Below are positions 1 to 60,745 of a stretch of 64,000 nt of DNA, piece by piece. The stretch comes from Bdellovibrionales bacterium. Lineage in GTDB: Bacteria; Bdellovibrionota; Bdellovibrionia; Bdellovibrionales; UBA1609. Within the stretch, counting starts at the first letter, position 1; each line of letters starts with the position of its first letter. The notes under the pieces are model-generated. The model saw only the letters and a program-made list of their open reading frames with translations, was not told the DNA's origin and did no database searches. Where the stretch lies: positions 1-64,000 of the forward strand of contig CBDHDF010000004.1 in the NCBI GenBank assembly GCA_965261545.1. The letters run 5' to 3'. A program made the position numbers and the translations under genes.

Positions 1-913
1 GATCTCTCGGAAATGATCCCTTTAATATATTCTTCTTCTTTGCGCCTTATTTTATTTCTCATTCGCACCAAATTTTCTCGCTTGATTCTAACGATTGATG
101 GATAAATATTAAAACCAAGAAAGGGAATGCCCTCTGACACAGGAGCTAGCTTAGTTACTCTTTCTTTAAGGCTAAGATTCAGAGTTTCTGCAAGAAATCC
201 TTCTATTTTTTGATGATATTTATTTAGTTCATACTTATCATTTGAAAATGATATAAAATCATCCATATAACGTAGGTAGCTCGGAATTCTGATATGTTCT
301 TTAACAAAATGATCCAAATAATCTAAATAAAAATTAGCAAAATTCTGACTTGTGAGAATCCCTATGGGAGACCCATTCTATCCAAATTGCCAGGCACCTT
401 ATTGTCAATAATTAAATCCAATAGATTCAAGAAATCTTCATCTTTAAAGTTCTTTCTCAATAATTCTTTTAAAATGTCATGATTTATACTATGAAAGAAT
501 TTCTTTATATCGCACTTCAGAAAATACCTAAATTTTCTAGAAAATTTCTGACATCTCCTAACTGCAGAATGAGTTCCTTTACCAGGGCGACAAGCGTAAC
601 TATCAAATATAAATCTTTTTTCAAACACAGGATCGCAATAATTACAAATAGAATGGTGAACCACCCTATCTCTAAAATTCGAACTACAAATTAATCTTCG
701 CTTATGTTCTCTAATTTCAAATTGTATATATGGGCCTGTACGATAGGTTTTTTGGATCAATTCATTTTGTATTTCAAATATTTCATTCTCAAGATTAAAG
801 TAAAATTCTGATATTGTTTTTTTATTTCTTTTCCTTCTCATAGCTTTTTTTGATGCTAACAAAAGGTTATCAAAGGTTGTTAATTCCTCAAAAATATTTC
901 CAATTCTCTTCAT
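1..913 (-). pseudogene. DGR reverse transcriptase, left copy; 1-bp frameshift near 365 and runs off the window edge
   Basis: Near-identical reverse complement of 59422-60335. One C is missing in GGTCTCCCC-ATAGGG, giving ...GLP*. The YMDD-coding segment continues in another frame. Confidence 0.9.
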
Positions 914-1287
914 AGAAGAGACTCCTGCTGCTTCATCCATCCACCAATCATTTTTCCTACCTCATTTATTGATCTAGAAGAGTATTCATAGGACTTTTGT
1001 GACATCATCTTGAGTTCAAAACAAATCCGCAATAAAATTCTCAATTTTTCAAGATTTATATTCATTCTTTTAAGAATGAATATTTTATTCTTATTATAAC
1101 GAGCTTCAACCATATCTTCTACAATAAGTAATGATAGATTTGTAAGATGATCTACAAAAGTAAATCTAGTTTTCTTAGGAAATTTATCAATCGCTACAAA
1201 TAACCACTTCACAAAGTCTACCCACTTTATAAAAATAATTAAATCTTCTTTATTTTTATGAAGAACATTCTTGCTCTGATAACTCAC
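910..1287 (-). CDS. avd: DGR accessory variability determinant (Avd), left copy
   Basis: Protein identical to 59048-59425; overlaps the RT start. Confidence 0.88.
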   Translation of the reverse strand: MSYQSKNVLHKNKEDLIIFIKWVDFVKWLFVAIDKFPKKTRFTFVDHLTNLSLLIVEDMVEARYNKNKIFILKRMNINLEKLRILLRICFELKMMSQKSYEYSSRSINEVGKMIGGWMKQQESLL

Positions 1288-1593
1288 TTGAATCGTCCTT
1301 TAAAACATCACGAACTATAACCTTTGAAATGGATAAGATATCTTTTCCATATTTGTCTACTCTATTTTTTCCTATACCATCAATTTTAACTAAATCTGAT
1401 AGCGTTTGAGGTCGCCTTTTTACTATGTCAGCAATCTGCTGGTTTGTTAAAACTACATAAGGCTGTACAATTGCGCGTATTGCCCGCACTGGTTGCACCC
1501 ATTACCCTCACTTTCCCTATTTCAATGCGTCATTGATGATTTTCCTTCCCATTTCTGGGGAAAATTTTAGTTAATTTGTAATCCTATTTCTTC

Positions 1594-2541
1594 CTATTTT
1601 AGGGAAAAGTCCTGGTCAAGTTTTGTTCCCTGGATTTTTCGATAACTCTCTCCTTTAAGTAAAATTTTCGTAGTGGTCCCTTTAATTGTGCATAGATTCG
1701 TAACTCATTTTGAGAAAGCTCTTTATTTACAGAAGCTTGATGTGTCCAATCTTTTATCAAATTCTATTACCTCTACTCTATGAAAAGAAAATCATTATTA
1801 TTTAATTATTTCAAAGACTTATGGATTTTCATACACAATTAAAGGGACCACTATGAAAATTTTTATGGCGGTATGCTTCAAACGGTCGATGATAGTATCT
1901 GCCAGCACCTCATCATCAATAATTTCTGACCAATGCGTTATTGGCAGTTGAGTGGTAATAACGGTGGACCTATCGGAACGAAACTTTAAAATATCGCAGA
2001 AGTCTGTGGATTCACTTTGGGAGAACTTCCTTAATCCAAAGTCATCAAAAATTAACACTTGGGGGCGGCCCAGACGACGCAAGTAGTTCAAATACCTTCC
2101 TGAGTGCCTTTCCAGGGCCAAGGTTTCTAGAAATATGTTGATGTCTATAAACAGTGTGGAGATTCTGGATTGACAACACTGGTGTCCCAGGCTCTGGGCC
2201 AAGAAGGTTTTACCCACCCCCGTTGGCCCTTCGACAATGATAGACCTTTGCTCCTTAACCCATGATAAAGTTTGAAGCCTATCCATCTCTCTTTTACTAA
2301 TAGACCTTTTGGCATGGTGGTCAAATGCCTCACCTCTGACCTTGTGAGGCAGCTTTGAGGTCTTGAGAAGTCTTTGGCTGAATTGGATTTTCCGAGCCTC
2401 CACTTCTGCAAATAACAGCTCGTTCAATAGATCCAATGCTTGAGTCTTGTGGCTTGTGTTATCCAGCGCCACTTCAAGGCTGTCTAACATTCCATAGAGC
2501 TTCAACTCATGCATGTGGTTTTTGATTTGTACTTCATCCAT
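1594..2541 (-). pseudogene. istB: IstB AAA+ ATPase interrupted near the C-terminus by a MITE
   Basis: Walker A GPTGVGKT and LIFDDFG. Removing 1669-1855 plus one TSD restores ..DRLKHTAIKILLKGESYRK.. Confidence 0.9.
1669..1855. mobile_element. 187-bp MITE (non-autonomous element)
   Basis: 25-bp terminal inverted repeats, 23/25 match (CGTAGTGGTCCCTTTAATTGTGCAT). 8-bp TSD AAAATTTT at 1661-1668 and 1856-1863. No ORF of its own. Confidence 0.9.
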
Positions 2542-3507
2542 CTGGCACCTCCTTGGGGCTTTGGTTATTTGGATTTTCGTTATGTCGCAAATAAGGGTTG
2601 CCTTGTTTACGATCTATTTTCTCGTTCACCTTTTTTATTTTTTGCCCTTTATAGAAATGGAGTTGTTGCTGAAAATATCTAACCCTCCTTTTCTCCCACT
2701 GCTTGCAGTCCTCAAGGGCTTTGATAATGAGAGGAAGGGACTTTTCCTTGCCCTCTTTCTGGATTTCTTTGTGACAGGAGCTTACAAAGCCCATAGCTCT
2801 TCTGAGATTTTCAATGGTCCCACCCTGAAAAAGCTCCTCAATGAAGTTTTCAAGCTCTTTACAAATCATACTTGCTTGAATGAGAATGTTCTGGGGAGTG
2901 GCCTCCTTGTAGGCGCGACTGGGCTCCGGGAGGTGTTCGTTTTTGGTGATGTACTCTCCGAGTTTACCTTTGGTCCTCTTGTGGCGAGCGAGGAGCTGTT
3001 TTTGAAAGTAAATCTCCACACTCTCCACTCCAATTTTTACATCTACATACTCCCCTCGGTGCTGAAACGGAGCCGAGTAGAAGTTGGATTCAACGCTCAC
3101 ATGACAGTCTTGGTGGAGTTTTTTCTTCTCCCAACGTCCCCACCGGTAGGGAAAAGAAGGCAAGGGTTTTAAAGTTTTTACCTCTCGTTGAAATTTTTCA
3201 TTGCGGGAGACCTTAAATCTTGTGTGAGGGCGAGCATTTATCTTCTCGCACACCTCCCTTAAAGCCTTATTAATTTGATCCAGACTGGTGAAGGTCTCTC
3301 GTCTGTACATGAACCTGAGGGCCCTTGTAACGAGCTTCACGGCATTCTCAGTAAGGCTTTTATCCTGGGGACGACGAACTCGAGCGGGAACAGCCACCGT
3401 GTCATAGTGTTCCAAAAGCTCTTGGTAGGATTTATTCAACTCTGGATCATACAAATGGGGTGTGTTCACTCCAGTCTTTAAATTATCAGGAACAACCACT
3501 CTCGGAA

Positions 3508-4898
3508 CAATGCCATTCGCTTAAGAATGGTTGAATTTATTCTAAGACAGGTGTTGTTTCAGAAAATAAAATATGTGACATTATTTTTAAAGGAGCATTG
3601 GAGACTTCAAAATTTTAAATTTACAAAGGAGCGAACAAAATGACAAGTTCGCGTCACAAACCACAAGAATATTATTTCTTATTTACCCAAAGAATTCAAC
3701 AAGAATCACTGCGTTAATGAAAATAAAACTCTAAGAAACAGGAAAATCACCCCAAAATATTTTTCTTTTTCATTCTTCAACTCGCCTGCAATATGACCTT
3801 TGCAGGTTACTCCTCAAATGCCCAAATACTTCAAACCCTTATTGAGGAGTTTCCCTCTCTTGCACAAAGCTCTTTATGTGTCTTCAGACAAAAATATCCT
3901 TTTATTTTTTTAAAGATATCTTCGACAATCGATCTCAAAGACTCTTGGGGGGCACTAAAAACTTATGAAGGATTTCACCTTGTAGGTATTGATGGAGACG
4001 AATATAGCCTTAGTGCGACAGGTGATGCGTTGGAGCAAGGGTATCGTGGTCGCGGGGCTCCTGAAGATAAAGAGACTTATTATCCACGCATGTATGTTGT
4101 AAAAGCTATTCATTTACTATCTGGAGTCATCTGCGGATTTTATCATGCAAATACCTGTAATGAGATTCTAGGAGCCTTAGGAATTTTAGAAAATTTACCT
4201 CAAAAAATCATTGCTGTTTATGATAGACTCTACTTATCAAAGGACTTGCTACAAGCACATCAAGTTCATGGTAGCTATTTTTATCTTCCGCTGCAAAGTA
4301 GGGTCTACATTTAAAGAGATAGTTAATTTTGCGGCAAGCCATATGAGAACAGCAGATGTTGTCTTAGATGGTGTGAGTGTACGTCTGATAAAGATCAAAA
4401 ATCCTAAGACAGGCAAAGATTTGGTCTTTGCCACAAATCTTCCTAAAAAGAATTGGAGTAAGAAGAAGATCGAACAAATTTATCAACTTCGTTGGGAGTG
4501 TGAGACCAGTAATAGAGATCACACTCTTTCCATAAATATGGAATCCTTGCATTCAAAAAGTATTAATGGAGTCTTACAAGAGCTGTATGCCTCATTCATT
4601 CTTAATAATATGCTCCGCCTAGAAGCTCATGAAAATGGAGGTTTCGAGGTAAGTCCAGATACTCCCATTACGAAGAAAGTTAATTTTAAATTTTTAGTAG
4701 AAATGTCTTTTGATTGGTTGGAAAAGATATGGTTTGAAAAAATTGAGGAATTTGTGAATCTGATGAAAAATCTTGTTACAAAAAATATCTCAAAGAGAAA
4801 GAGGATGTCAAGATGGTACGAAAGAGAGATTAAAGGATGTAGGAAGTCCTATAAAAATAGTGCTCTTGTTGTTCGGAGGGTTTAAACGAATGGCATTG
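3508..4898 (+). mobile_element. IS4-family element #1 (1391 bp)
   Basis: 18-bp IRs CAATGCCATTCGCTTAAG (16/18 match). 10-bp TSD ACTCTCGGAA at 3498-3507 and 4899-4908. Confidence 0.92.
3640..4885 (+). pseudogene. IS4-family transposase with frameshifts near 3757 and 4280
   Basis: GIDG, YDRLY and YQLRWECE (YREK-like) motifs are spread over different frames; the shifts fall in homopolymer runs. Confidence 0.82.
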
Positions 4899-5539
4899 AC
4901 TCTCGGAACCCCACCGTAATATTCAAACATCAGAACGTGAGCGTGAAGAAAATCTTCACTGGATTCGCTCAAAGAGCCATAAGCAAAAATACGCTGAGAG
5001 AAACATAGATTTGAGCAAAATATATGGGCCTTATGAATATTAAAGTCTTCATCGATCCACTCTGGCTGAAACCCTGCGTAATCAACCTCAACTTGGTGGC
5101 CTGGCTGAAAATCACGCAAGGTAATAATCCTTTTGCCAGCTTTTGGAAATTGCTTATGAAACTCCCTCGTAAACTGGGGGTAGCTAATGACCTTCAGAAA
5201 TTTTTCCTCCCAAACGTCACTTAAACAATGCCTATCCTCAATCTCCTTCTCAATAATCTTCCAATCTATACCGTAAGACCAAGGGGGAATTTCTCTTTGG
5301 GTCTTCCAATCCTTGGGGTCTGTTAAAAGACCACGTCTTATCTTTCTAAGAGTCTTGGTGCAGCATTTCATGCGGCGACTGATTTCTCGGTCGGGAATAT
5401 TTGCCTTTATTAATGATTTTATTTTTGTGTAACGCTCATGATCCATCTTTGTTCTCATTTCGACCTCCTTGGTTAAAGATTGGAGGTCTTTATAGAACAT
5501 CAATGACGCTATGCTAAGGGGAATCAGTCATGCCAATCA

Positions 5540-5657
5540 GTGCGGGCAATGCCATGCAACTGGTGCGGGCAATGCCATGCAACTGTGAGGGTAATGCCAT
5601 GCAACTGGTGAGGGTAATGTCATGCAATCGGTGAGGGCAATGCCATGCAATTTTACA
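5540..5657. repeat. Five tandem 22-23-bp subterminal repeats of IS21 #1
   Basis: Unit GTG(C/A)GGG(C/T)AATGCCATGCAA(CTG) with no spacers; degenerate inverted copies at 1464-1510. Confidence 0.88.
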
Positions 5658-6140
5658 TAAGGAGGAATACCATCTTTCTTACAACGCTGCGATCTCCAAT
5701 CTCTTAATAAATTAAACAATCCCATCTCGTGTTCAGATAAAGACTTCTTCCAGCTTCTTTCTTTTTGGATGGACCTACTTTTAACTACATCCTGAGCAAC
5801 CGGGCAATACTTAAGTACAAAAACTAAATATGGTGTTTCATTCTTCACAAATAGATAATCACGAGAAGAAACAAGCTCCTTATCTTTTAAAAACTCTCTC
5901 ACTTCATCATCATCAAAACCACCAAGAGCCGAATTAAAAGACAAGGATATGACTTTGATTAACATACACCTCTCACTAAAATAAAACTAAATACGAAGAG
6001 AGGGTTGGCTTTCGCCACGCTCCGCGGGCTCAGCCTTTCCCTCCCTTCTTGCCTTGTGCCCGCCCATGCCTGACGGCTGGCATGCTGAGGCTCGCTTCGC
6101 TTCGCCTGGAAAAGGGTAAAAGTGTAAAAGGGCAAAGGGG

Positions 6141-7955
6141 TTACATAGGCGTCCTCACAAGGCGGAAACCGATAAAGTCCCAGCGATTACCAGGCCGAAC
6201 GTTGAAACGATTGGAAGAGCGCAGGCCGCGAGCGTAGTTGTACCAACCGCCACCACGTATAACACGGTTAGAGCCATTTTTCGGACCTCTAGGGTCTGTG
6301 ACAGGACCAAAATCATACCAAGGTTTAGAATACTCCTCCTCATACCAATCTTCGACCCACTCCCACACATTTCCATGAACATCATAAAGCCCTAGGGGAT
6401 TGGGGCTCAGCAATCCCACGGACCTTGATTGTCGGCTTTGTTTGCCAGATCGAGAGTTCCCACTATACCAACCATAGTTTTGAAGTTCTGAAGGATTGTC
6501 ACCAAAGGAGTAGGCTGTTTTTGTGCCTGCTTTTGCACCACCCCTGGCTGCAAATTCCCACTCCGCTTCCGTAGGCAAACGGTATTCATATTTGTCACCG
6601 TGGGACTCTCTCGCCCTGCGATTGTACTCATTTATAAATTCTTGGACGTCCTCCCAAGACACTCTCTCCACAGGATGATCGGCGCACATTGAAACTCCAT
6701 CTTGTTCCATATAGCTTTCTTGGCAATGCTCTTCTTCTTGGAATCTTGAAGGATTTGTCCCCATCACAACAAACCACTGCCATTGAGTCACCTCTGTGGT
6801 GCTTATTTCAAAGGGCTTAGAAATTGTTACTTTATGAGGGGTCTCATCCGAATCTCGATCTTTTTCAGTCTTAGGACTCCCCATAGTGAAAGAACCTGCG
6901 GACACGGGGACAAAACCATATTGAGACAAGCTTGGTCTCACATAGGCTCTCAAAACACTGTATTCAATGCCCGTTTTGTCTTTTGAATAAAGACGTGTGT
7001 TCATCCGAGGGCTTCCTATCACTTCATCCACCAAGCTTTCAATGACTCCGTTAAGAACTCTCACGGCAGAAGCAAACTCCTGCTTGCTGTCAATTTTTGA
7101 GTCAAGTTCTTCAAGGTTTTTTTCTTAAGGCAGCTAATTGTTTTATAAGAGATCCTGCATTTTCTTCTCCATAGGCGTCTATGAACTTTTCTATGCCTGA
7201 GACCTTTTCCTTGGCCTCATCTCTTTGTCGAACGAGGTCATGGACGGAAGCTTCCATGCCCTCTTTATAGGCTTTGACCTGCCGAGCCTCTTTGGGACCT
7301 AGGGTAGGAAGCTTATTAACTCTTAGCACGGATTGAAGGCGACGCTTAAAGTCACTGACAAGGACTTTTCTTATAAGTGCACCATCGGGCCGCTGGCAAT
7401 CACTCACCTCATTTATAACAGAACCCACTTCACACTCTTGGATCACAATCTTATCTTCTCCTTGGTGGCTTTTTTCTTTATAAAATAAAATCACATCACC
7501 ATCGGGGCCTACAAGATTCACAGAAGAGGGCCTTCTTTTGTCACCCCTCTTATCACTATCACCTCTTTTCGTACCATGAGGACGAGATCCACGAGGTCCG
7601 CTGTGGGAACCATGGCCGCCATGGGAACTATAATGACCTTGGAAGCCAGATCCATGGGGTAACTGGAGTCGGCCTCCTGATTTTAGGGTGATTCGCCTCA
7701 TCTTTTCTTCATGCTTACGAACCACAGCCTTGTAGGAAGCGGTACGGTCTTCTGGTGTAGAAGAGTCCCCTGATGGATTTGTATGATTCTGGTTCTGATT
7801 CAGACCTTTGTCTTGACTCTCTCGGCTCTCTTTGCCCTCTTGGCTCACTCGGCTCTCTTTGCTCAAAAAGGCACATGAGGGCAAAACCATCAATAGTGAC
7901 AATAACCACAAAAGCAATAAAGGTCTCAGGACCTTATGGGTTTCATTCCTTTCAT
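6141..7955 (-). pseudogene. DGR target gene, left copy: lipoprotein with C-terminal FGE-sulfatase/CLec domain; frameshifts near 7928 and 7120
   Basis: FTMGS, HPVERVSW, RLPTEAEWE, GLYDVHGNVWEW and GFRL motifs; LPSC lipobox; two 1-bp indels relative to the right copy. Confidence 0.9.
6154..6278 (-). repeat. DGR variable repeat VR1
   Basis: 125-bp ungapped match to TR 60446-60570 with 13 mismatches, all at TR adenines. Confidence 0.96.
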
Positions 7956-8173
7956 TTTTTGATCTCCTTTCATTTTTTGCTTTGGCGGCACTTTACTTAA
8001 CTCTTGCCCTCTTTAGCCATTGACTTGAAGCCATAAACTCACCCACTATCTGAACCAACCTTAGTCTCATTGACTCAAGCCTACCTACTTGACTTTACTT
8101 ATGTCACTAAGTCATTGTCGACACAAAATAGTACAAACTTGAATTTCTAGACTTTGCGAGGACTCCACTGACA

Positions 8174-8674
8174 TTGCCGCCAAAGAAAACCTCAGAAAAA
8201 AGAAAACAACAGTCTCAGTCCCATAATGCTCTATTCAATGAAACTTTCCTGAATGAGAGATATTGCCTAGACATTTTCCGTCTTGTCTTGACGACACAGG
8301 AGTTTAAGCTCTTTAACTGGAAAACTCTCAAACCAGAAATAACTGTCTTTACAGATGAAGAGGGCAATGAGCGGCGCATTGACCTTTTATTCTCAGTTCA
8401 AGTCAAGGGGTCCCAAAAACGGGTACGTCTTTTTTTTCTGCTCGAACACAAAAGTCATCAGGATTCTCAAGTTCTCCAACAAATTCTGAGGTACCAGACC
8501 CTTGTTTACAATCGCTGGAATTATCCGGTCATTCCCATACTGGTCTATCACGGACGACAAAAACACTGGAGGGGTCCCCTGAATTTTCAAGACTCTCTGG
8601 ATGGACTCACTCCCGTTTTAAGACAAAAATTTGGGAAGAATATCCATGATATAAACCTTCGTATTGGGTCATAA
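8174..8674 (+). pseudogene. Rpn/YhgA-like PD-(D/E)XK putative transposase, C-terminally truncated
   Basis: HNALF.., RIDLLFSV, LLEHKS and VIPILVYHG motifs; only 166 aa. Confidence 0.75.
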
Positions 8675-8750: not shown

Positions 8751-10187
8751 CTAAAGTTCAGCAGAAAATATCCGGGTCTTTCGTTCGATGGACACTGGGA
8801 TTCTGAGATAAAATTGACTGCCCTCTGCCGAAGTCCAATCAATGCCAGCTTCACCACCATGGGCATACATAATATGACGGACAATGGACAAACCAAGACC
8901 TGTGCCTCCCTTGTCACGGCTTCGCCCCTTATCAACACGGTAAAAGCGTTCAAAAAGTCGAGACTGTTGAGTTTCCTTTATTCCTGGTCCACAATCCCTT
9001 ACAAGAAGGTCTATAAAATTATCAACTCGACGGGATGAAATCGTCACTGTCGTGTTTTTAGGACCATATTTAATGGCATTATCCACCAAATTCACCAAAG
9101 CTTGTATCAACAAGGTGAGGTTTCCCTGAAATTCTGTAATTTCTAAGTGCTGGGCCTCAATGGAAATGCCTCTGTCCTGCGCCTTTTGTGAACAAACTTC
9201 TATGGTTCCCTTGACAACATCTTCAAGGTAAGTCCACTGCACATTAGAAATACGATCTCCCTTTTCTAGCTCCGACAATACCAATAGATTATCAATCAAA
9301 GAATCCAAATGATCCGCATGTTTTTGAATAACTTTTGAAAATTGTCGAAAATGATCTTGAGATTGAAGAGCCGGATTTTGCATGGTTTCAGCATAGCCCT
9401 TAATAGACGTAAGTGGCGTTTTTAGTTCATGGGAGGCATTGGAAACAAACTCTTGCCTATGACGCTCCAATTTTCTCAGCTCAGAAACATCCACAAGTAC
9501 AAATATGGAACCACGAAACTTAGCTTTGAGGGAAAAAATAGGACTGGAGCGAACAATAAAGACTCTTTCTGAAACTTTGTTCTCATCAAGAATGATCTCT
9601 CTTTTCTGTTTTTCCTGACAAGCAGCTGCATGTTCAATAAATTCCCTTAAACTAGATAATCCAACAATATCTTGCACATAAAAATCCTCTTTCATCTCCA
9701 TGTGAATACCTAAGATTTCTTTGGACGAAGAGTTCATGTGATTAATGCGCCCCTCTTCATTAACAGAAATCACCCCCTCATCCATATTCTCCAGAATAAC
9801 CTCTTGTTGTATTTGCCCCTTAATGACAGCCTTTTGACTGCTCCTAAAATCTCTCACAAGTTTGGAAAGAGTTGATGCTATGGATAAGATTTCTTGGGGA
9901 GTTCTTTTCTTCTTTTGAAAGGAAACTTTCAAGTTCCCCTCAGTGACATTTTCGATATAGGTTTTAAGATCTTGCATGGGACTAAGAGCTCTTTGTAGGA
10001 CCCACCAAAGGAAAATACCAGAAACCAAGAAAACACAAATAACAAGAAAAAACTGTAAAGGCTGCCAAGACAATAAGCCCAAAGTTGCAACCATGGCAAA
10101 GACAACAACACATAAACAGGGAGGGAAAACACACCATATATATGTTTTAATGGGAGGCACCATCATCAAAGCGATAACCCACTCCAT
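8751..10187 (-). CDS. phoR: PhoR-like sensor histidine kinase (TM-HAMP-PAS-HisKA-HATPase)
   Basis: FVSNASHELKTPLT, NLVDNAIKY, FERFYRVDKGRSR, GGTGLGLSIV. Confidence 0.85.
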   Translation of the reverse strand: MEWVIALMMVPPIKTYIWCVFPPCLCVVVFAMVATLGLLSWQPLQFFLVICVFLVSGIFLWWVLQRALSPMQDLKTYIENVTEGNLKVSFQKKKRTPQEILSIASTLSKLVRDFRSSQKAVIKGQIQQEVILENMDEGVISVNEEGRINHMNSSSKEILGIHMEMKEDFYVQDIVGLSSLREFIEHAAACQEKQKREIILDENKVSERVFIVRSSPIFSLKAKFRGSIFVLVDVSELRKLERHRQEFVSNASHELKTPLTSIKGYAETMQNPALQSQDHFRQFSKVIQKHADHLDSLIDNLLVLSELEKGDRISNVQWTYLEDVVKGTIEVCSQKAQDRGISIEAQHLEITEFQGNLTLLIQALVNLVDNAIKYGPKNTTVTISSRRVDNFIDLLVRDCGPGIKETQQSRLFERFYRVDKGRSRDKGGTGLGLSIVRHIMYAHGGEAGIDWTSAEGSQFYLRIPVSIERKTRIFSAEL

Positions 10188-10851
10188 GCACTGTTTTTAT
10201 ATGTTGGCCCGCTTGCCCAAGCTTTTTGCGAAGACCCACCATCTGAAAGTCAATGGACCGATCCGTCACAGCGTAATTATCCCCATGAATCTTATCTACC
10301 AGTTGATTGCGTGTAAAAACCCAACCCGGCCGGCTCATAAGAGAATGAAGAATTCTAAACTCCACCTTCCGCAACTGAATTTTCTTCCCATGAACATGAA
10401 CCTCATGCCTCCCAAAGCATATATCAATACCATGAAGGCTTATGGTGTCCATCTTTTCCACCTGCCTTTCCCCACGCTTGAGAACAGTTTTCACCTTAGC
10501 CACAAGCACTTTGGGGCTAAATGGTTTTGTCATATAATCATCAGCCCCCATTTCCAAACCCTGTAGAATATTTTCTTCAGAAACTTTCGCTGTGACCATA
10601 ATAATGGGAAGAAGTTTAAACTGAGAATACTGACGAATCCAGCGACAAAGATCCAGACCACTGAGGCCAGGCAACATAAGATCGAGAAGAATGAGGTTCG
10701 GGCAACTCTCAATGAGAGCATCAGGAACAGATTCGCCTCGACTAAAGTGCTGAGTGCTTGCTCCCTCCAACTCTAAGTTAATACAAATAAATTGTGCAAT
10801 ATCTCTTTCATCTTCGACGACAAAGATCTTTTTTCCCGACAATTCACCCAC
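10147..10851 (-). CDS. phoB: PhoB/OmpR-family response regulator
   Basis: Receiver LLDLMLPG and GADDY; winged helix IKTVHGVGY; adjacent to the phoR-like gene. Confidence 0.8.
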   Translation of the reverse strand: MGELSGKKIFVVEDERDIAQFICINLELEGASTQHFSRGESVPDALIESCPNLILLDLMLPGLSGLDLCRWIRQYSQFKLLPIIMVTAKVSEENILQGLEMGADDYMTKPFSPKVLVAKVKTVLKRGERQVEKMDTISLHGIDICFGRHEVHVHGKKIQLRKVEFRILHSLMSRPGWVFTRNQLVDKIHGDNYAVTDRSIDFQMVGLRKKLGQAGQHIKTVHGVGYRFDDGASH

Positions 10852-10868
10852 AAAAACTCCTTAAATAC

Positions 10869-11774: not shown

Positions 11775-12056
11775 ACCTAAAACAGGACTATATCCTTAAC
11801 CAGAAGCTGTCAAGGAAGCCAAACCTTTTAGATTGCCACAACTGTACAATGGCCTTGGCCCCTAGGGTGCTGGGATAGGCCAAAGAATACTTATTTATGT
11901 TGCTTCATTCCAAGTTCTCATGTAGTTTGCAGCTATTATGAAAATTCACCGAGATTTGCAAGTTCACCAGTTGCTCCTTTTGATAGAGTGGCCTGGATTA
12001 TGCAATTTAGCTCAATGATAGTACCTCAATGAGTTCATAAAATTCAGGGAGAATAA

Positions 12057-29796: not shown

Positions 29797-29899
29797 GACG
29801 ACGAGCTAAAACCTCACGTCCGCTTTTGGTTTTCATACGGGAACGAAATCCATGTGTTGACTTACAGCTTTTACGACTAGGCTGGTATGTTCTTTTCAT
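29750..29899 (-). CDS. rpmH: 50S ribosomal protein L34 (absent from the ORF track)
   Basis: Hand translation [49 protein letters not shown]. Confidence 0.97.
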
Positions 29900-30206
29900 T
29901 TTTTATATCCTCAATTCAGTTTTTCCAATTCTTCTTAATCCTCAGGGACTTTAAGGTGCAACAAGGAAGGGGGAGTAAGATGTAACAACTCGACTCCCTC
30001 GAATTCAACACAGCACACAAATCAACGCACCGCAATAAATGTCTGACAACACGCTCCACAAACTTCATACAATTAATCACAACGTCAAAAGAAGGTCAAG
30101 ATAGCGTTGTAAGATTTAAGAAATTATGGTAGGAGTTTGCTTTAGATTTCATGCTTCGATTCGTATTTCACACACCACAATACATTTCTTCTGAGGGCAA
30201 TATCTC

Positions 30207-31649
30207 ATGTTGGAACAAAACTTCTGGCAAAAGATTAAAGACAGTTTAAAGAAAAAAAATGCACACAATAATCTTTTTCATATGTGGTTTGATCCAACCC
30301 AATTGATTGAAATCAAAAAAGAACTCAATAGCCATCGATTTCGTCTAGGGGTTCCCTCAGAACTCCACAAGTATTGGATATCCGAGAATCTTCTCAACCT
30401 AATTTCTGAAGAAATATCAATGATTTACAAAAAACCCTTTTATTTAGAACTCATCGTCACAAACAGTCTAAAAGAAAGCTCCAAGGATCCTTCTTTACCC
30501 TTATCCACAAAAAATTATCAGCAAAATCAACTCAATCTATCCTATGTGCAAGCTCATACAGGAGCTAAAGTTCTTGCGAATCCTAATAGGTTTCAGCAAT
30601 TTACTCAAGATAAAACCCAAAGAGGATCTCTCAACCCCGACTACACCTTTTCTACGTTTGTAGTGGGCCGCAACAACGAATTTGCTCATGCTGGTTCTTT
30701 TAGTATTGCGGAACAACCTGGAAAGGATAGCTACAATCCCTTATTTATCTATGGACCTACGGGAATGGGTAAAACCCATCTTCTTCACGCCGTTGGAAAT
30801 CACATCTCCACCAGTCAGCCCCACCTTCGAGTCAATTACGCTTCAGCCGAAAAATTTATTAACGAATGTATTTCCAGTATTCGTCGAAGAGAAATGGACA
30901 AATTTCGCCTCAAGTACAGGGAAAGATCAGACATTCTTTTAATGGATGACGTTCAGGTTTTGAGACACGGTGAAGCAGTGCAAGAAGAGTTTTTTCACAC
31001 CCTCAACCATTTTTTTGACAAGAAGCAGCAAGTTGTCATTGCCAGCGATCGAATGCCAAAAGACATTCGTGGTCTCGAAGACCGCATTCGAACTCGCCTT
31101 GAATGGGGTCTTATTGCAGATATCCAAATGCCAGACATTGAAACAAGGGTTGCCATTTTAAAATATAAAGCCGAACTTATGAAATTAAATATTCCCCCAG
31201 AAGCTATCTCCTACATAGGTCGAATATCTAAACGATCCATACGAGAGCTAGAAGGCAATCTCAACAAAGTTCGAATTTATAGTGAGCTTCAAGGTCTACA
31301 CTTAAACCTTGAATTGGCCAAAAAAGTTCTGGCGACTCATGATGACGCAACACATATAACTATTTCGGAAATACAAAAAATTTGTGCTCGCCATTTTGAA
31401 ATCAGTGTTTCAGACCTAAAGTCGAAATCTCGAACAAAACCCCTCGTCGTTGCAAGGCAGTCGGCCATGTTTATGATAAAAAAACATCTCGACAAATCAC
31501 TTGTTGAAATTGGACGTGCTTTTGGAAAGGATCACACCACAGTTATTAATTCATTGCGTCGAATTGAAAGTCAACTTGGTAAAGATTCCGATTTAAAGAA
31601 AGATATTGATGAGATAGAAATGCGAATCCACAATCTCACAGGGGTGTGA
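30207..31649 (+). CDS. dnaA: Replication initiator DnaA
   Basis: YNPLFIYGPTGMGKTHL, QEEFFHTLN, KDHTTV. Confidence 0.98.
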   Translation: MLEQNFWQKIKDSLKKKNAHNNLFHMWFDPTQLIEIKKELNSHRFRLGVPSELHKYWISENLLNLISEEISMIYKKPFYLELIVTNSLKESSKDPSLPLSTKNYQQNQLNLSYVQAHTGAKVLANPNRFQQFTQDKTQRGSLNPDYTFSTFVVGRNNEFAHAGSFSIAEQPGKDSYNPLFIYGPTGMGKTHLLHAVGNHISTSQPHLRVNYASAEKFINECISSIRRREMDKFRLKYRERSDILLMDDVQVLRHGEAVQEEFFHTLNHFFDKKQQVVIASDRMPKDIRGLEDRIRTRLEWGLIADIQMPDIETRVAILKYKAELMKLNIPPEAISYIGRISKRSIRELEGNLNKVRIYSELQGLHLNLELAKKVLATHDDATHITISEIQKICARHFEISVSDLKSKSRTKPLVVARQSAMFMIKKHLDKSLVEIGRAFGKDHTTVINSLRRIESQLGKDSDLKKDIDEIEMRIHNLTGV

Positions 31650-31860
31650 ATAAACAATGTGGACAAGTATGTGGAAAGATGTGTGTCATCGTTGTGGAAA
31701 CGAACTTATCCACAACCACCGACTGGAACAAAGCCCTTTTAATAAGAAGGTTTTCCACAAGAATTTGTTATTAATTTCAATAATTTAAGTAGATTTAAGA
31801 GCTATCCACGGCCCTACTACTACAACTATTTTATATATATACAATTAACTATTAGTTTAA
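31645..31860. other. Chromosomal replication origin oriC
   Basis: DnaA-box-like 9-mers at 31645, 31658, 31670, 31693, 31706 (perfect TTATCCACA), 31751 and 31802, then GCCC, TACTACTACAACTA trios and an AT-rich tract. The + strand shifts from C-rich to G-rich around here (by eye). Confidence 0.92.
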
Positions 31861-31872
31861 GGGGTTATATCC

Positions 31873-33000
31873 ATGAAAATAAAGGCTGAAAGAAATGACC
31901 TATTTTCTCTTCTCAATCGTTGCCAGAGTATCGTGGAAAAAAAAACCACAATGCCAGCCCTCATCAACATCTTACTTAAATCTAAAAGAAATACTTTAAA
32001 GCTTTTTGCAACCAACCTTGAAGTAAGCTTTGTGGATGAGATTATTGCTGAAATTGATGAGCCAGGAGATGTTGCCGTTAACTCAAAAAGCCTTTTTAAT
32101 ATCATCAAGGAATTGCCAGAGGGTCCAGTTCAATTAATAAAACAAGAAAACAACTGGCTCAAAGTTTCTCAAAGTAAGTCCAATTTTAAGATATCTGGCA
32201 TTCACCCTAGTGAGTATCCAGACTTTCCTGAAATTAAAGCAAAGCATTTTTCCAGTATTAAGGCTTCTGCTCTTTCAGAGATGATCGATAAAACCATATT
32301 TAGTGTCTCTAATGACGAGACGCGCTATCATCTTAATGGTGTTTATTTTGAAAGGGTGAGTTCAGACGAATTTAAGATGGTTTCCACAGATGGTCATAGG
32401 CTAAGCCTTATTAATAAATCCTTGGGTCTTGTATCAAATGGTCTTTCATGGTTGTCTGTAAAAGAAGGAGTTATTATTCCACGGAAAGGGCTTAATGAGA
32501 TTAAAAAGTTGAGTGAATCAAATGATGATGAGAGTATCTTTCATGTAACTATTGATGGCTCTCAACTTGTTCTTTGCCATGAGAAGGTTGTTTTGATGAT
32601 TCGTCTCATTGAAGGACGATTTCCCAATTATGAACAACTTATTCCACAGAGTTTAAAAGAGCGTATTTTATTTAACAGAGAGGAATTACTTGCTGCCTTG
32701 AGAAGGGTATTTATTTTATGTGATCAAAAGTCAAAAAATGTTATTTTTGATTTGTCTGAGGGGTGTATTAAGATATCTTCAAGGGATACCACTCTTGGAA
32801 GTGCCAAAGAAGAAATAGAAATTGATTACCAAGGAGAAGACTTCAAGGTTGGGTTTAACATCAAATATTTCTTAGATGTCTTGACAACTATGAATGTGGA
32901 TGAAGTGGATATTGAATTGCAGGATAACTCATCACCTGGTCTACTAAGACCCCATGGGGATAAAAGCTATACCTGTGTTATTATGCCTATGCGTGTTTGA
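31873..33000 (+). CDS. dnaN: DNA polymerase III beta clamp
   Basis: DETRYHLNGV, STDGHRL, VIMPMRV. Confidence 0.97.
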   Translation: MKIKAERNDLFSLLNRCQSIVEKKTTMPALINILLKSKRNTLKLFATNLEVSFVDEIIAEIDEPGDVAVNSKSLFNIIKELPEGPVQLIKQENNWLKVSQSKSNFKISGIHPSEYPDFPEIKAKHFSSIKASALSEMIDKTIFSVSNDETRYHLNGVYFERVSSDEFKMVSTDGHRLSLINKSLGLVSNGLSWLSVKEGVIIPRKGLNEIKKLSESNDDESIFHVTIDGSQLVLCHEKVVLMIRLIEGRFPNYEQLIPQSLKERILFNREELLAALRRVFILCDQKSKNVIFDLSEGCIKISSRDTTLGSAKEEIEIDYQGEDFKVGFNIKYFLDVLTTMNVDEVDIELQDNSSPGLLRPHGDKSYTCVIMPMRV

Positions 33001-53246: not shown

Positions 53247-55828
53247 AGATCCCCACTTTTGGGGAAGGAACTCGCCAGTTATCCACAAAATTTATCCACA
53301 GCAGCACTGCGTTGCTAGACATCGGGGTCACAGCCGCAGTGTCGCCATGGATAAATTTATGGATAACTGGCTTTTACCGTACTATTTGCTCGTCACTCTC
53401 GCGGAGCTTTAGACATTAGCTGCGCCAAGGAATCCTGAAAAATACTCCATTTACCTCTGCCATAGGGCTGAAGGATGCATTTGGGGTCATGCCAAAAGTG
53501 GTGGGCAGAAAATCATTCCTCAGAATCTTGTGGCATAGTCCGAGTTAAATGATGAGCAAAATAAAGACACTTGACTAAACTCTGAACGAAGAATAACTAA
53601 ATCAGTACATCATCAACTGGCCGTTTTTCATTGGCGACGGCTTCTAAAAATGGCCAATTTTAATTGGCGCCTAACATAAGATAGTCTCCTCTCTTTTTCT
53701 ACCGCCTTTTGAAACAATTTACAGGCCAAATGTTGAAGTTGGTCCACTAAAAATACCAGCATCATAATCACGGCTAAATTGTTACACAAATTTTGCTTGC
53801 CGTGGCCAAAATTGTGCTCAAAGTTGTAACCCAAATTCTTTAACGTATTAAATGTTTCATTTTCTATCTTCCAGCGTGCTCTTCCCCCCCTCATTATTTG
53901 CATTATGTTGTCTTCGTTGATCTCAATGTCAGTCACCCAGCTAAAGTGCTGAACCTTACCGTTTGCTTTCGTTTCTTTGTATTCAATAAAATTCACTCGA
54001 CAATCAGGATTTGAATCATTGAGTGAAACATCATTTATGAATCGAAATTCATGTGTCACTCCATTCTCTACCACGGTGAAGTGAGAAACTGTTCCTAAGC
54101 TATCTGCTCCATTTACAAACTCAAATAAAACTTTGTGGTCCCCCATCTTACAGCCTAAAATATAACTTAATTTTAATTCGTTAAGAAGAGTGATGTGAGG
54201 AGCATTGGAAGCCAATCCATCCTCAATAACAATCACTGGAAGGTGAGGGTGTTCCCTGCGAAAATCTTCAAGGAGTCGTTTGGCTGCATTACGCTCACAA
54301 TCATTTTTGCTCGATCCATCTGTGTTTGAAATGGGCTCTGGAGCAATAGGTATAACCTGTTTCTTATCGGGGTGAACAATCACTCCTGCTAACATTTGAT
54401 GATAGTAGGTCTTCGTCTCATCACGATGATTCTTTATACAACAATTCTCACAATGAATAGTCGAGGAGCTAAAGGCACCTGTTCCATCAATGCTGAGAAG
54501 ATATTTTCCACCCAAATATGGGTAACCCTCCAAAACCTTCCCTCTTTGAGCTACGGTAAACAAAGATTTAAAAAAATTTTGAAACTCACGGGTTGGAACA
54601 GGATCTAAAATCTCTCGCATAGCCGTATCACTAGGAATTTGGCCTATTTGAAACAAATGGTGTAGGTTGTTTTTTGCCACTGGGTCATGGACACGATCAC
54701 AAAACTGAAGCATGGATGGATCTTTCAAGGCAAACATTGCCACAGATGACATAATGGCATCGCTCAGAGGAATCCTATGGGGACGCTGCGATCTTATATC
54801 TGGAACTGCAAGAGATTTACTGTGTAGCAGGGAATACATTCCTGAAGCGGATAGACCTTTTCTAAAATGTTGATGCGACATGACGAACCCTCCTTGGTCT
54901 GATGTGCAACAACAAATATTCAAACAGATACTTAGGCAAAAGTCTACGAACTCTTTTTGAGGCGAATCTTTTGGAAGCCACTACTGTGGCCTAAACTATT
55001 TTTCGACGGGAATTGCTGGCTTGAGTCAATGAGACTAAGGTTGATTCAGATAGTGGGTGAGTTTATGGCTTCAAGTCAATGGCTAAAGAGGGCAAGAGTT
55101 AAGTAAAGTGCCGCCAAAGCAAAAAATGAAAGGAGATCAAAAAATGAAAGGAATGAAACCCATGAGGTCCATGAGACCTTTATTGCTTTTGTGGTTATTG
55201 TCACTGTTGATGGTTCTGCCTTCATGTGCCTTTTTGAGCAAAGAGAGTCGAATGAACAAAGAGGGCAAAGTGAGCCGAGAGAGTCAAGACAAAGGTCTGA
55301 ATCAGAATCAGAATCATACAAATCCATCAGGGGACTCTGCACCTCTATCTACATTACATCATCTACACCAGAAGACCGTACCGCTTCCTACAAGGCTGTG
55401 GTTCGTTCGTAAGCATGAAGAAAAGATGAGGCGAATCACCCTAAAATCAGGAGGCCGACTCCAGTTACCCCATGGATCTGGCTTCCAAGGTCATTATAGT
55501 TCCCATGGCGGCCATGGTTCCCACAGTGGACCTCGTGGATCTCGTTCTCATGGTACGAAAAGAGGTGATAATGATAAGGGTGACAAAAGAAGGCCCTCTT
55601 CTGTGAATCTTGTAGGCCCCGATGGTGATGTGATTTTATTTTATAAAGAAAAAAGCCAACAAGGTGAAGATAAGATTGTGATCCAAGAGTGTGAAGTGGG
55701 TTCTGTTATAGATGAGGTGAGTGATTGCCAGCGGCCCCATGGTGCACTTATAAGAATAATCCCTGTGAGTGACTTTAAGCGTCGCCTTCAATCCGTGCTA
55801 AGAGTTGATGAGCTTCCTACCCTAGGCC

Positions 55829-57239
55829 CAATGCCGTTTCCTTAAGAAAAATCTCTTGAAATCATTAGATAAATCGACAAGAATAAGACTTGTTTTATTT
55901 TACACCCAACCCTCAACCAAGGAGTAAGTCACATGCAATCCAATATTGATCTCGAAAGCCCCCAAATGACGAGTTCGCGTCACAGATGACCATTTTATTC
56001 TACCAAAACTTGATTCTTCCTTCAAGCCAGAGCACCTTGTCGATCCAGAAAAACAAAAAAGGAATCGAAAATTTAATCCTCAAATTTTCTTTTTTACCAT
56101 TATCTATCTTATTTCAGGAACAAATTACGAAGGCTACCAAATCGCTCTTAAGACGGTATGGACTCATTTTGGTGACCTGCTTCTCATGCCAGTCAAAAGC
56201 AGTCTCAGCAAGATACGTCAAAGTATTTCTTACCTATTTTTCAAAGATATCTTTGAATCTCTGATTACAGACTACGAACCATTGAGAAAAACGTTTCATG
56301 GTTTTTATATCTATGCCATAGATGGCGACCAATTAGCACTTCCTCGCTCTAAAGATCTTTTAAAGGAGGGTTATTGTGGGTACCCTTGCCCAAATGAGAT
56401 GGAAACTCATTTCTTACGTATGTATCTATCTCATGCTTATGACGTTTTATCGGGTGTGACAAAGAATCTTTGCTATTCTCCCGCTCTCAACGAAATCGCC
56501 AATGCTATTCAAATGATAGGTAGTTTTGAGAGTAATAGCATAACTCTCTACGATAGGCTTTATTTATCTACAGAGATTATTAAGGCCCATGCTCAAGCCA
56601 GTAACTTCTTTATTGCGCGTTGTAAGCGAGGCTCTACTTTTATCCCCATCGTAAATTTATTTAATGGCCCAGGTTGGTATTCACAAATGGTTATTGAGGG
56701 GGTGGTCATTCATCTCTATAAGTATAAAAACCCAAAGACTGGGGAGTTCTCTGTTTTGGCCACTAATCTTCCGCATGGCTCCTTGGACAAGAAGGATATG
56801 GTTGCTCTTTACTCTCGTCGTTGGGAAATAGAAACGACATTTCGTGATTTTACATCGACAATGAAAATGGAGCAGTGGCACTCAACAAGCCTTAATGGAA
56901 TATTGCAAGAGCTGTATTCTTATTTTTGGCTCTTCAATTATACAAAGATTCAAATGAGCATAAATGAGGATGAAGACAGTGTGAATCAGTTGGTGAAAAA
57001 TGACTACAAAAAACCTAACTTTAAACTGATTCTTGATTTCATAATGGATAGCATCCCTCTTTTTGTTGCGGGGCTCTATCAGAAATTTAGGAAGCAGATA
57101 AAGTTGCTGATGAAGATTTCAATGGAGAAGAGGAGGCACTTCAAAAGAAGCTATGAAAGGTCTATCAAAAGGGCTGGGAGTTCTTTTAAAAGAAATAGCT
57201 TAACGCAGAGGGGTGTGGTGGCTTAAGGAAACGGCATTG
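55829..57239 (+). mobile_element. IS4-family element #2 (1411 bp)
   Basis: Perfect 18-bp IRs CAATGCCGTTTCCTTAAG. 10-bp TSD ACCCTAGGCC at 55819-55828 and 57240-57249. Confidence 0.94.
56186..57226 (+). CDS. IS4-family transposase (frame open from 55970; true start unclear)
   Basis: AIDGD, YDRLY, YSRRWEIETTFRD. Confidence 0.88.
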   Translation: MPVKSSLSKIRQSISYLFFKDIFESLITDYEPLRKTFHGFYIYAIDGDQLALPRSKDLLKEGYCGYPCPNEMETHFLRMYLSHAYDVLSGVTKNLCYSPALNEIANAIQMIGSFESNSITLYDRLYLSTEIIKAHAQASNFFIARCKRGSTFIPIVNLFNGPGWYSQMVIEGVVIHLYKYKNPKTGEFSVLATNLPHGSLDKKDMVALYSRRWEIETTFRDFTSTMKMEQWHSTSLNGILQELYSYFWLFNYTKIQMSINEDEDSVNQLVKNDYKKPNFKLILDFIMDSIPLFVAGLYQKFRKQIKLLMKISMEKRRHFKRSYERSIKRAGSSFKRNSLTQRGVVA

Positions 57240-58256
57240 ACCCTAGGCCCCAAAGAGGCTCGGCAGGTCAAAGCCTATAAAGAGGGCGGGGAAGCTCCCC
57301 GTTTCCATGACCTCGTTCGACAAAGAGATGAGGCCCAGGAAAAGGTCTCAGGCATAGAAAAGTTCATAGACGCCTATGGAGAAGAAAATGCAGGATCTCT
57401 TATAAAAAAATTAGCTGCCTTAAGAAAAAACCTTGAAGAACTTGACTCAAAAATTGACAGCAGGCAGGAGTTCGCTTCTGCCGTGAGTGCTCTGAACGGA
57501 GTCATTGAGAGCTTAGTGGATGAAGTGATAGGAAGCCCTCGGATGAACACTCGTCTTTATTCAAAAGACAAAACAGGTATTGAATACAGTGTTTTGAGAG
57601 CCTATGTGAGACCAACATTGTCTCATGGTTTTGTCCCCGTGTCTGCAGGTTCTTTCATCATGGGGAGTCCTAATACTGAAAAAGGTCGAGATTCGGATGA
57701 GACCCCTCATGAAGTAACAATTTCTAAGCCCTTTGAAATAGGCACCACAGAGGTGACTCAATGGCAGTGGTTTGTTGTGATGGGGACAAATCCTTCAAAA
57801 TTCCAAGAAAAAGAGTATTGCCCAGAAAGTTATATGGAACAAGATGGAGTTTCAATGTGTGCCGATCATCCTGTGGAGAGAGTGTCTTGGGAGGACGTCC
57901 AAGAATTTATAAGGGAGTACAATCGTAGGGCAAAAGAGACCCACGGCAACGAATATGAATACCGTTTGCCTACGGAAGCGGAGTGGGAATTTGCAGCCAG
58001 GGGTGGTGCAAAAGCAGGCACAAAAACAGCCTATTCCTTTGGTGACAATCCTTCAGAACTTAAAAACTATGGTTGGCATCAGGGGAACTCTCGATCTCGA
58101 TTTGGCAAACAAAGCCGACAATCAAGGTCCGTGGGATTGCTGAGCCCCAATCCCCTAGGGCTTTATGATGTTCATGGAAATGTGTGGGAATGGGTCGAAG
58201 ACTGGTATAAGAGGAAATATCCTGAAGGTCCTGTCACAGACCCTAGAGGTCCGAAA

Positions 58257-58381
58257 AATGGCTCTTACCGTATTGTACGTGGTGGCGGTTGGAACGGCTA
58301 CGCTCGCTCCCTGCGCTCTTCCAATCGTGGCTACGATCGGCCTGGTAATCGCTGGAACGTTATCGGTTTCCGCCTTGTGAG
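58257..58381 (+). repeat. DGR variable repeat VR2
   Basis: 125-bp ungapped match to the TR with 14 mismatches, all at TR adenines. Confidence 0.97.
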
Positions 58382-58569
58382 GACGCCTATGTAACCCCTT
58401 TGCCCTTTTACACTTTTACCCTTTTCCAGGCGAAGCGAAGCGAGCCTCAGCGTGCCAGCCGTCAGGCTGGGCACAAGGCAAGAAGGAAGGAGAGGGAAAG
58501 GCTGAGCCCGCGGAGCGTGGCGAAAGCCAACCCTCTCTCCGTATTTAGTTTTATTTTAGTGAGAGGTGT

Positions 58570-59079
58570 ATGTTAATCAAAGTCATATCCTTGTCTTTTA
58601 ATTCGGCTCTTGGTGGTTTTGATGATGATGAAGTGAGAGAGTTTTTAAAAGATAAGGAGCTTGTTTCTTCTCGTGATTATCTATTTGTGAAGAATGAAAC
58701 ACCATATTTAGTTTTTGTACTTAAGTATTGCCCGGTTGCTCAGGATGTAGTTAAAAGTAGGTCCATCCAAAAAGAAAGAAGCTGGAAGAAGTCTTTATCT
58801 GAACACGAGATGGGATTGTTTAATTTATTAAGAGATTGGAGATCGCAGCGTTGTAAGAAAGATGGTATTCCTCCTTATGTAGTTTTAACAAACCAGCAGA
58901 TTGCTGACATAGTAAAAAGGCGACCTCAAACGCTATCAGATTTAGTTAAAATTGATGGTATAGGAAAAAATAGAGTAGACAAATATGGAAAAGATATCTT
59001 ATCCATTTCAAAGGTTATAGTTCGTGATGTTTTAAAGGACGATTCAAGTGAGTTATCAGAGCAAGAATGTTCTTCATAA
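58570..59079 (+). CDS. HRDC-domain DGR accessory protein
   Basis: LFNLLRDWR..GIPPYVVLTNQQI..RPQTLSDL..IDGIGKNRVDKYGKDIL is an HRDC signature. Confidence 0.9.
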   Translation: MLIKVISLSFNSALGGFDDDEVREFLKDKELVSSRDYLFVKNETPYLVFVLKYCPVAQDVVKSRSIQKERSWKKSLSEHEMGLFNLLRDWRSQRCKKDGIPPYVVLTNQQIADIVKRRPQTLSDLVKIDGIGKNRVDKYGKDILSISKVIVRDVLKDDSSELSEQECSS

Positions 59080-59425
59080 AAATAAAGAAGATTTAATTAT
59101 TTTTATAAAGTGGGTAGACTTTGTGAAGTGGTTATTTGTAGCGATTGATAAATTTCCTAAGAAAACTAGATTTACTTTTGTAGATCATCTTACAAATCTA
59201 TCATTACTTATTGTAGAAGATATGGTTGAAGCTCGTTATAATAAGAATAAAATATTCATTCTTAAAAGAATGAATATAAATCTTGAAAAATTGAGAATTT
59301 TATTGCGGATTTGTTTTGAACTCAAGATGATGTCACAAAAGTCCTATGAATACTCTTCTAGATCAATAAATGAGGTAGGAAAAATGATTGGTGGATGGAT
59401 GAAGCAGCAGGAGTCTCTTCTATGA
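59048..59425 (+). CDS. avd: DGR accessory variability determinant Avd
   Basis: 125-aa basic helical protein with KFPK..RF and EVGKMIGGW; ATGA-coupled to the RT. Confidence 0.9.
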   Translation: MSYQSKNVLHKNKEDLIIFIKWVDFVKWLFVAIDKFPKKTRFTFVDHLTNLSLLIVEDMVEARYNKNKIFILKRMNINLEKLRILLRICFELKMMSQKSYEYSSRSINEVGKMIGGWMKQQESLL

Positions 59426-60445: not shown

Positions 60446-60570
60446 AATGGCTCTAACCGTATTATACGTGGTGGCAGTTGGAACAACAACGCTCGCAACC
60501 TGCGCTCTTCCAATCGTAACAACGATCGGCCTGATAATCGCTGGAACAATATCGGTTTCCGCCTTGTGAG
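60446..60570 (+). ncRNA. DGR template repeat (TR)
   Basis: AAC-rich copy of both VRs 10 bp after the RT stop; 12 AAY codons in the VR frame. Confidence 0.96.
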
Positions 60571-60697
60571 TACATAGCTGTGTATAAAGTAAGAGTGAAT
60601 TGCCAGGAAATGTCGTTTATGGACTGCATTTGTGTGCCTAGGCTATGTCCAGATCATCATCCTGCGCTGATATTGTGTATCAGACAAATAAATCTAT

Positions 60698-60745
60698 AGT
60701 CATTGCGCTGAGTAGGTTATTCTTGAAAATCGCAATGACTTTTTT
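60698..60745 (+). terminator. Probable intrinsic terminator of the DGR transcript
   Basis: AGTCATTGCG...CGCAATGACT followed by TTTTT; the loop is long. Confidence 0.6.

Follow-up and report, generated by a model that had tools for sequence, protein, structure and literature searches.

Variable repeats and their template

In a Bdellovibrionales genome of 11 contigs and 4.32 Mb, contig C4 begins with 64 kb of sequence, called the window in this paper, that contain two target genes of a diversity-generating retroelement (DGR), each ending in a variable repeat (VR), together with one template repeat (TR). VR2 lies in the same cassette as the TR, and VR1 is found near the contig end. This arrangement raises the question of how VR1 received its sequence, and whether one reverse transcriptase (RT) and one TR can serve several targets in trans.

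The TR aligns from 60446 to 60570 without gaps with VR1 (6278..6154, minus strand). The alignment agrees with the first-pass annotation of this DNA, which had described 13 differences between VR1 and the TR, six A>G and seven A>T, all at adenines. The probability that all 13 changes land on the 32 adenines of 125 sites by chance is 2e-9. VR1 and VR2 differ from each other at 14 of the 32 A sites and at none of the 93 non-A sites. The peptides quoted earlier for the two repeats are correct, as are the three whole-codon changes common to both (AGT>GGT, third AAC>TAC, GAT>GGT) and the statement that position 1 of the window corresponds to 60335. A fourth common base, A>T at 60549, lies in a codon that otherwise differs. 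The shared changes had been regarded as either ancestral or selected. Neither ancestry nor selection is needed for these codons, since chance suffices: four shared changes were seen and 2.6 are expected when the changes are shuffled over the 32 A sites (P(>=4)=0.24).

Just outside the coordinates of the first-pass annotation a T>G mismatch at TR position 60571 is common to all six VRs known from this genome (see below), and a mismatch is found at the matching place in the relatives G034 and G240. To judge from its position, this site would mark the boundary between IMH and IMH*. VR1 is confirmed as a real DGR variable repeat of the ordinary kind.

Public data were available as contigs from four runs of one sample, which is possibly the source of the assembly. 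The exact VR2 sequence is present in contigs of the runs X1, X2 and X4. One X2 contig that covers a VR (18 differences, 2 gaps) does not exactly match any assembled copy.

Table 1. Features of the window and variable repeats on other contigs of the same genome. Coordinates without a contig name refer to the window.
Feature	Coordinates	Strand	Evidence and remarks
Left RT	1..913	-	5 substitutions, frameshift before YMDD
Left HRDC gene, 3' part, and intact left avd (910-1287)	910..1468	-	
IS21 inside left HRDC gene	1464..5653	-	contains two inserts, one MITE-like (1669-1855) and one IS4-like (3518-4888)
Left HRDC gene, 5' part	5654..5965	-	tblastn; 342 nt identical to right copy
GC-rich inverted repeat downstream of VR1	6044..6090 (limits approximate)	-	altered in comparison to VR2 copy
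3' end of VR1 (invariant), including stop codon and IMH-like mismatch (6153)	6141..6171	-	T>G in 6/6 VRs
VR1, at 3' end of target gene 1	6154..6278	-	13 differences to TR, all at adenines
Target gene 1, lipoprotein-like N terminus and CLec/FGE domain	6141..7991	-	PF03781, E 1.5e-51
Truncated Rpn/YhgA-like gene	8174..8674	+	PF04754; accompanies four of six target copies
Replication origin region (dnaA), between the two inverted target copies	29800..32100	.	NCBIfam dnaA/dnaN/recF/gyrB, yidC/mnmE/mnmG/parAB
Target gene 2, interrupted at 55832-57239 by an IS4-family element	55108..58394	+	
VR2	58257..58381	+	14 differences to TR, all at adenines
HRDC accessory gene, intact	58570..59079	+	PF00570, E 8e-21
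avd, intact	59048..59425	+	PF22296, 80 bits (cut-off 40); NF033474, 108 bits (cut-off 80)
DGR RT, intact, 337 aa	59422..60435	+	PF00078; YMDD at residue 216
TR with IMH*	60446..60573	+	18 variable codons, ~7e17 possible peptides
Conserved non-coding stretch after TR, hairpin at its end	60574..60740	+	alignment with G034, G240, fold
Further close VRs	C2:788156, C7:142452, C7:51024, C11:148603		TR search of genome

The DGR cassette and its target genes

The right-hand cassette has the order target (split by IS4), VR2, inverted repeat, HRDC, avd, RT and TR, and the TR starts 11 nt after the stop codon of the RT. It comprises the features that define a DGR, namely an intact RT with a TR, an adenine-only VR, Avd, the IMH/IMH* mismatch and a CLec C terminus of the target. 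The HRDC gene places it among the HRDC-containing DGRs (architecture C, Treponema type). The conserved stretch after the TR is probably part of the DGR RNA. Other RT matches elsewhere in the genome show 26-31% identity. The named homologs of the RT include proteins from Bdellovibrionales and Bacteriovoracia, and those of DnaN are from Bdellovibrionales (54-57%). Repeats that occur in five or more copies make up about 37% of the genome.

Both targets of the window are broken as assembled. Besides the IS4 insertion in target gene 2, target gene 1 contains 1-nt indels near 7928 and 7122 and appears as two ORFs (7111-7917 and 6141-7064). The lipoprotein-like signal of the target was read by eye. 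Its best solved relative by sequence is TvpA from T. denticola (E 4.3e-30). TvpA (2y3c) is also the top Foldseek match (E 4.8e-22, TM 0.77) of a target model with a pLDDT of 90.5, which was built on a 43-sequence alignment; the single-sequence fold reached a pLDDT of only 32.5. The CLec/FGE fold proposed in the first-pass annotation is therefore in agreement with the model, which matches a TvpA-like CLec fold. According to the alignment with TvpA, the variable residues map to what we take to be a TvpA-type binding site. The N-terminal half of the target gave no match in the ESM Atlas. The likely product would be a repertoire of surface lipoproteins with a lectin fold which bind prey, host or phage.

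The GC-rich inverted repeats behind the VRs are not alike. In DNA folds calculated without shuffle control the VR2 copy forms a stem with a GTCA loop, and the VR1 copy has a 5-nt insertion, a 6-bp stem and an 8-nt loop. The inverted repeat behind the target copy on C2 is cut by an IS.

The inverted cassette copy at the contig end

The left side of the window is an inverted copy of the cassette with target gene 1, an HRDC gene split by IS21, an intact avd and a damaged RT. The left and the right HRDC-avd-RT segments differ by about 0.3%. The contig end cuts the left RT 100 nt before its stop codon, and a left TR would begin 111 nt beyond this end, position 1 of the window being position 1 of C4. 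The ~250 bp to the left, whose retrieval the first-pass annotation had proposed, are thus absent from the assembly. The insertions in the left HRDC gene form a nest of three levels, in which each insert has target-site duplications, and the 187-nt MITE-like insert is single-copy. A 43-nt piece of the HRDC start was also seen at C10:380532-380574, with an IS end on one side and a small gene on the other. The GC skew changes its sign near 30 kb. Under any reading of this left core the template of VR1 has an identical non-adenine sequence.

To one reading of the left core we give nearly an even chance: the split HRDC, Avd and RT are a minority arrangement of a single locus, either a strain allele or an inversion between target copies which is approximately symmetrical to oriC. 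In cells with this arrangement VR1 would then be targeted in cis, and in all other cells as a remote copy. The inverted copies indeed lie on either side of oriC, at distances of about 24 and 28 kb. In X1 a 177-nt HRDC contig that is common to both copies has a depth of 9.8 compared to 9.18 for the contig that extends into single-copy DNA, and in X2 the corresponding depths are 5.3 and 6.5. Furthermore, an X1 contig spans 58707 to 62660 without a break at the IS21 insertion point and without any additional letters, an X2 contig starts exactly at this point, and five other contig ends of the assembly duplicate sequence found elsewhere in it. However, the depth of a contig does not equal its copy number, IS junctions can be lost when the graph is cleaned, and all runs belong to one sample. 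Internal duplications of 94-99.9% identity are also numerous in this genome, the outer flank needed for an inversion is found on no contig, the left hairpin has private indels, and the supposed allele carries three nested insertions. The gene order of nadK, trxB, sufB and dnaA is not conserved in 30 relatives and does not help to decide which orientation is the older one.

A fixed second cassette, which decays and has its own TR beyond the contig end, is a rather doubtful alternative. VR1 would in that case have been diversified in cis, by a left TR that equals the right TR at non-A sites. A history of its own is indicated by the three nested insertions with their target-site duplications and by the five RT substitutions, three of which are non-synonymous. 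The base quality near the left core is good, since only 2 of 1653 nt in the neighbouring IS21 deviate from the closest copy of this element. On the other hand, a BLAST search of the 11-contig assembly revealed no second TR, although an unassembled copy may exist, and the X1 and X2 contigs continue without a branch after the TR at single-copy-like depth. What probability remains beside these two readings belongs to a fixed left copy that lacks a TR.

Six variable repeats in the genome

The genome was searched with the TR for further VRs, as the first-pass annotation had proposed. This revealed four more close VRs (Table 1) and a degenerate relic on C10; a second, shorter relic on C11 was picked up with VR1 and VR2 as queries. 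No CLec gene is found upstream of these relics (C10:751855-751967 and C11:624080-624134), which suggests that their targets were lost before.

The six close VRs have 12-21 substitutions each, and 91 of 91 are located at TR adenines within 60446-60570. Across the six VRs 29 of the 32 A sites vary and none of the 93 others, compared to 141 varying columns out of 1651 in the scaffold (Fisher P=6e-4). Indels occur in three of the six VRs (-3/+3, +1/-1 and -2) and could be assembly errors. They were rejected as a novelty, since such indels are given for 7% of DGRs in the consulted part of a survey (PMC5758913).

A genome search confined the DGR RT, avd and TR to C4. The four other VRs are located on C2, C7 and C11, which have no DGR RT or TR, at least 51-148 kb from the contig ends. 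The copies at C2 and C7:51024 are open with altered VR motifs and the one at C7:142452 is frameshifted. As only the C11 copy is a fully canonical target gene, the target repertoire is decaying in this IS-laden genome. An ENA protein from outside the assembly (P0243) contains a further VR, and each of the first 37 residues of this VR can be derived from the TR by adenine changes.

The first-pass annotation had also suggested that one RT and one TR could serve both targets in trans. For the four other copies such action is supported, as judged from their sequences, and the relatives described below point in the same direction. For VR1 itself it is unproven, because the contig end intervenes and the left core is possibly an arrangement around oriC that only a minority of the cells has.

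Duplication and spread of the target gene

The nearest paralog of the VR1 gene is the C11 copy, from which its scaffold differs by 2.0%; the VR2 gene, with a difference of 4.6%, is not its sister. A 15-nt segment that ends about 30 nt before the VR is present in the VR1 and C11 genes and absent from the VR2 gene. Since the VR1 and C11 scaffolds are this close and have the segment in common, yet their VRs differ at 20 of the 32 A sites, rewriting in place is indicated. It was proposed earlier that VR1 and VR2 were diversified separately from one template after a duplication. Separate rewriting stands, but an origin of the two from a single duplication is not supported, given 4.6% difference between the targets and only about 0.3% between the HRDC-avd-RT parts.

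A module of integrase, HTH_17 and Rpn genes precedes three copies, those on C2 and C11 and a partial one on C5, and a 9-nt match to the 3' end of tmRNA is found at the end of the integrase module. Two copies have kept an HRDC remnant with a 163-nt deletion, which is also present in four of the four public runs. The target may thus have spread as cargo of an integrative element.

The integrase and HTH_17 module was seen in several copies with variable cargo (C11:139000-153500, C2:783361, C5:9937). The one on C11 lies beside the target and the 5' fragment of a fumarase-like gene. Two tmRNA genes of the genome (C2:48920-49277 and C11:894679-895034) encode an identical tag peptide.

Related systems in Bdellovibrionales

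The RT was matched at E<=1e-80 in 15 and the N-terminal half of the target in 16 of the 384 genomes of the order, this genome being included in both counts. The full order HRDC-Avd-RT-TR with an upstream target was found in six of ten related RT loci examined. Scanning of genome contigs with the RT yielded one distant locus. In viral contigs scanned with the RT there was no confirmed relative, and in metagenome contigs scanned for the VR/TR pattern there was none.

The most informative relative is G240, whose genome consists of two contigs and has one RT match at E<=1e-80, with 73% identity. One contig of 3.04 Mb carries 13 VR-like matches: ten without any non-A substitution, two with one or two, and a degenerate one. 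The TR of G240 has a TAG at the conserved Trp codon. The cis copy has retained this stop; the remote VRs, 11 of 11, have TGG there. Sister pairs of remote copies differ at only 3-4 of 560 scaffold sites as compared to 16-18 of 34 A sites. The GC-rich inverted repeat is whole in none of the 11 remote copies and entirely lost in ten of them, and the VRs are nevertheless distinct. The picture is not a simple one, as besides this loss the scaffolds are mosaic, and in the 560 nt upstream of the VR one remote scaffold is identical to that of the cis copy. Action of one RT/TR in trans on remote targets is supported by G240.

The other relatives are less uniform. In G360 three of ten VR-like matches are adenine-only and the other seven have 2-18 non-A differences, G365 has four VR-like matches with 0-4 non-A differences, and G034 one cis and one remote VR, both adenine-only. 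Apart from that, G126 (end of C25) has a second TR-like copy with non-A differences, and G240 has another gene of the Avd family (C2:953706) at a great distance from its cassette. Contig C1 of G027 has many dispersed homologs of the target family, and an RT match at E<=0.001 is absent there.

Proposed mechanism and other explanations

The mechanism of adenine-mutagenic homing is established for Bordetella BPP-1. We consider it probable that VR1 is one of six dispersed VRs of a chromosomal DGR of the HRDC-Avd type, the target of which was copied before each copy was rewritten in place. By analogy, a complex of RT and Avd would copy the TR RNA with random bases opposite the adenines, and the cDNA would replace the 3' end of any gene that has TR homology and an IMH-like end. 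The lipoprotein-CLec target gene would have been brought to several sites through IS activity, partly as cargo together with integrase and Rpn genes, and each copy would then have been rewritten where it lies. The mosaic scaffolds of the paralogs count against this explanation, as they indicate gene conversion between copies, which could move a VR. Further points against it are the broken state of both window targets, the altered hairpin behind VR1 and the cut one behind the C2 copy.

A quite improbable alternative is that only the cis target was ever retrohomed and that the remote VRs are snapshots of it, spread by duplication or gene conversion. This would be in line with the mosaic scaffolds, with the G240 scaffold that equals the cis copy and with the loss of the cis-type inverted repeat from the remote copies of G240. 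However, sister remote copies share derived segments up to the VR which are absent from the cis copy, and they differ only at adenines. Conversion tracts would in each case need to start no more than about 30 nt from the VR. That VR1 is an assembly artefact or the result of ordinary drift in a duplicated gene can practically be discounted, even if a contig end is 6 kb away and its gene has two 1-nt indels, because of the confinement of its 13 changes to adenines, the single-copy DNA between the two copies (11830 to 50035) and the presence of paralog-specific deletions (57 nt and 163 nt) in the public-run contigs.

A far wider proposal, which we regard as unlikely at present, is a DGR clade of all Bdellovibrionales in which a single template gives rise to a genome-scale repertoire of surface lectins, with as many as 12 targets in G240, that acts as a tropism switch of predators or symbionts in the recognition of prey or host. 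It would include tmRNA-type integrative elements that spread target-only cassettes as their cargo, homing without the downstream hairpin, and, in the present genome, an inversion spanning oriC that swaps the RT-adjacent paralog.

Comparison with known systems

A system of this kind is already known as the Treponema-type multi-target DGR, and the interest of the present one lies in the host lineage and the number of targets. The DGR of Treponema denticola is likewise chromosomal, with one RT, one TR and an HRDC accessory gene (PMC4891356, PMC5758913). Its two to seven FGE/CLec targets, many of which are lipoproteins, are also dispersed far from the core (PMC4891356). In the sections consulted, the T. 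denticola HRDC gene is described between TR and RT, in contrast to the order target-HRDC-Avd-RT-TR found here, and 38 of 56 variable columns are at A, whereas the VRs of this genome have no non-A substitutions. Full-length paralogs of 95-98% identity and a Bdellovibrionales-like host are further differences to T. denticola.

Duplicated DGR loci degraded by transposons are also described for Thiohalocapsa PB-PSB1, for which trans activity was argued, as here, from a perfect non-adenine match, and for which structural variants were seen in long reads (PMC10907252). According to the same parts of that paper Thiohalocapsa has several RT/TR classes and targets in conflict systems, unlike the one TR and single lipoprotein family reported here. 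With BPP-1 and Legionella LdtA the present system shares Avd, RT, A-to-N changes between TR and VR, IMH/IMH* and perhaps the GC-rich inverted repeat, a feature that not all DGRs have. LdtA is a surface lipoprotein whose CLec tip is variable, as the targets here probably are. In contrast to our case both are described as cis systems with a single target, on a phage or an ICE (PMC5758913).

In the consulted part of the 2018 survey non-adjacent targets are listed for 45 of 372 DGRs, with at most seven, and HRDC for 14; the maxima are seven remote or eight tandem targets (PMC5758913). The 12 adenine-specific VRs of G240 exceed these seven remote targets. Another survey would miss remote targets by its own statement (PMC8144416). 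Our literature search found no report of DGRs in Bdellovibrionota, although survey supplements may list such genomes.

To go by the available text of PMC10907252, every DGR that has been characterised by experiment acts in cis. Clean natural cases in which a single template has many dispersed targets therefore make trans homing and the requirements for a target testable. The clade offers near-identical paralogs, targets with and without a downstream hairpin, and the stop-codon template of G240. The prey recognition of Bdellovibrio-like predators is still being worked out, and in the part consulted DGRs appear only in a reference title (PMC10769870). Hypervariable surface lectins in relatives of Bdellovibrio are a candidate mechanism for the recognition of many prey. 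The window alone is of modest value, since both of its targets are broken and the type of system is known.

Other observations

A gene set for a sensor kinase, a response regulator and a LysR protein is present as an IS-flanked duplicate of 98.4% identity at 8751-11829 of the window and at C10:1100684-1103764. This phoR-phoB-lysR duplicate was considered as a sign of an alternative haplotype and set aside as not decisive. About 15-20 near-identical starts of Rpn/YhgA-like genes are found at C2:279000-381000. Finally, positions 42940-43740 of the window (minus strand) encode a histone-like protein rich in Lys and Ala, with ten 39-nt repeats and an acidic tail.
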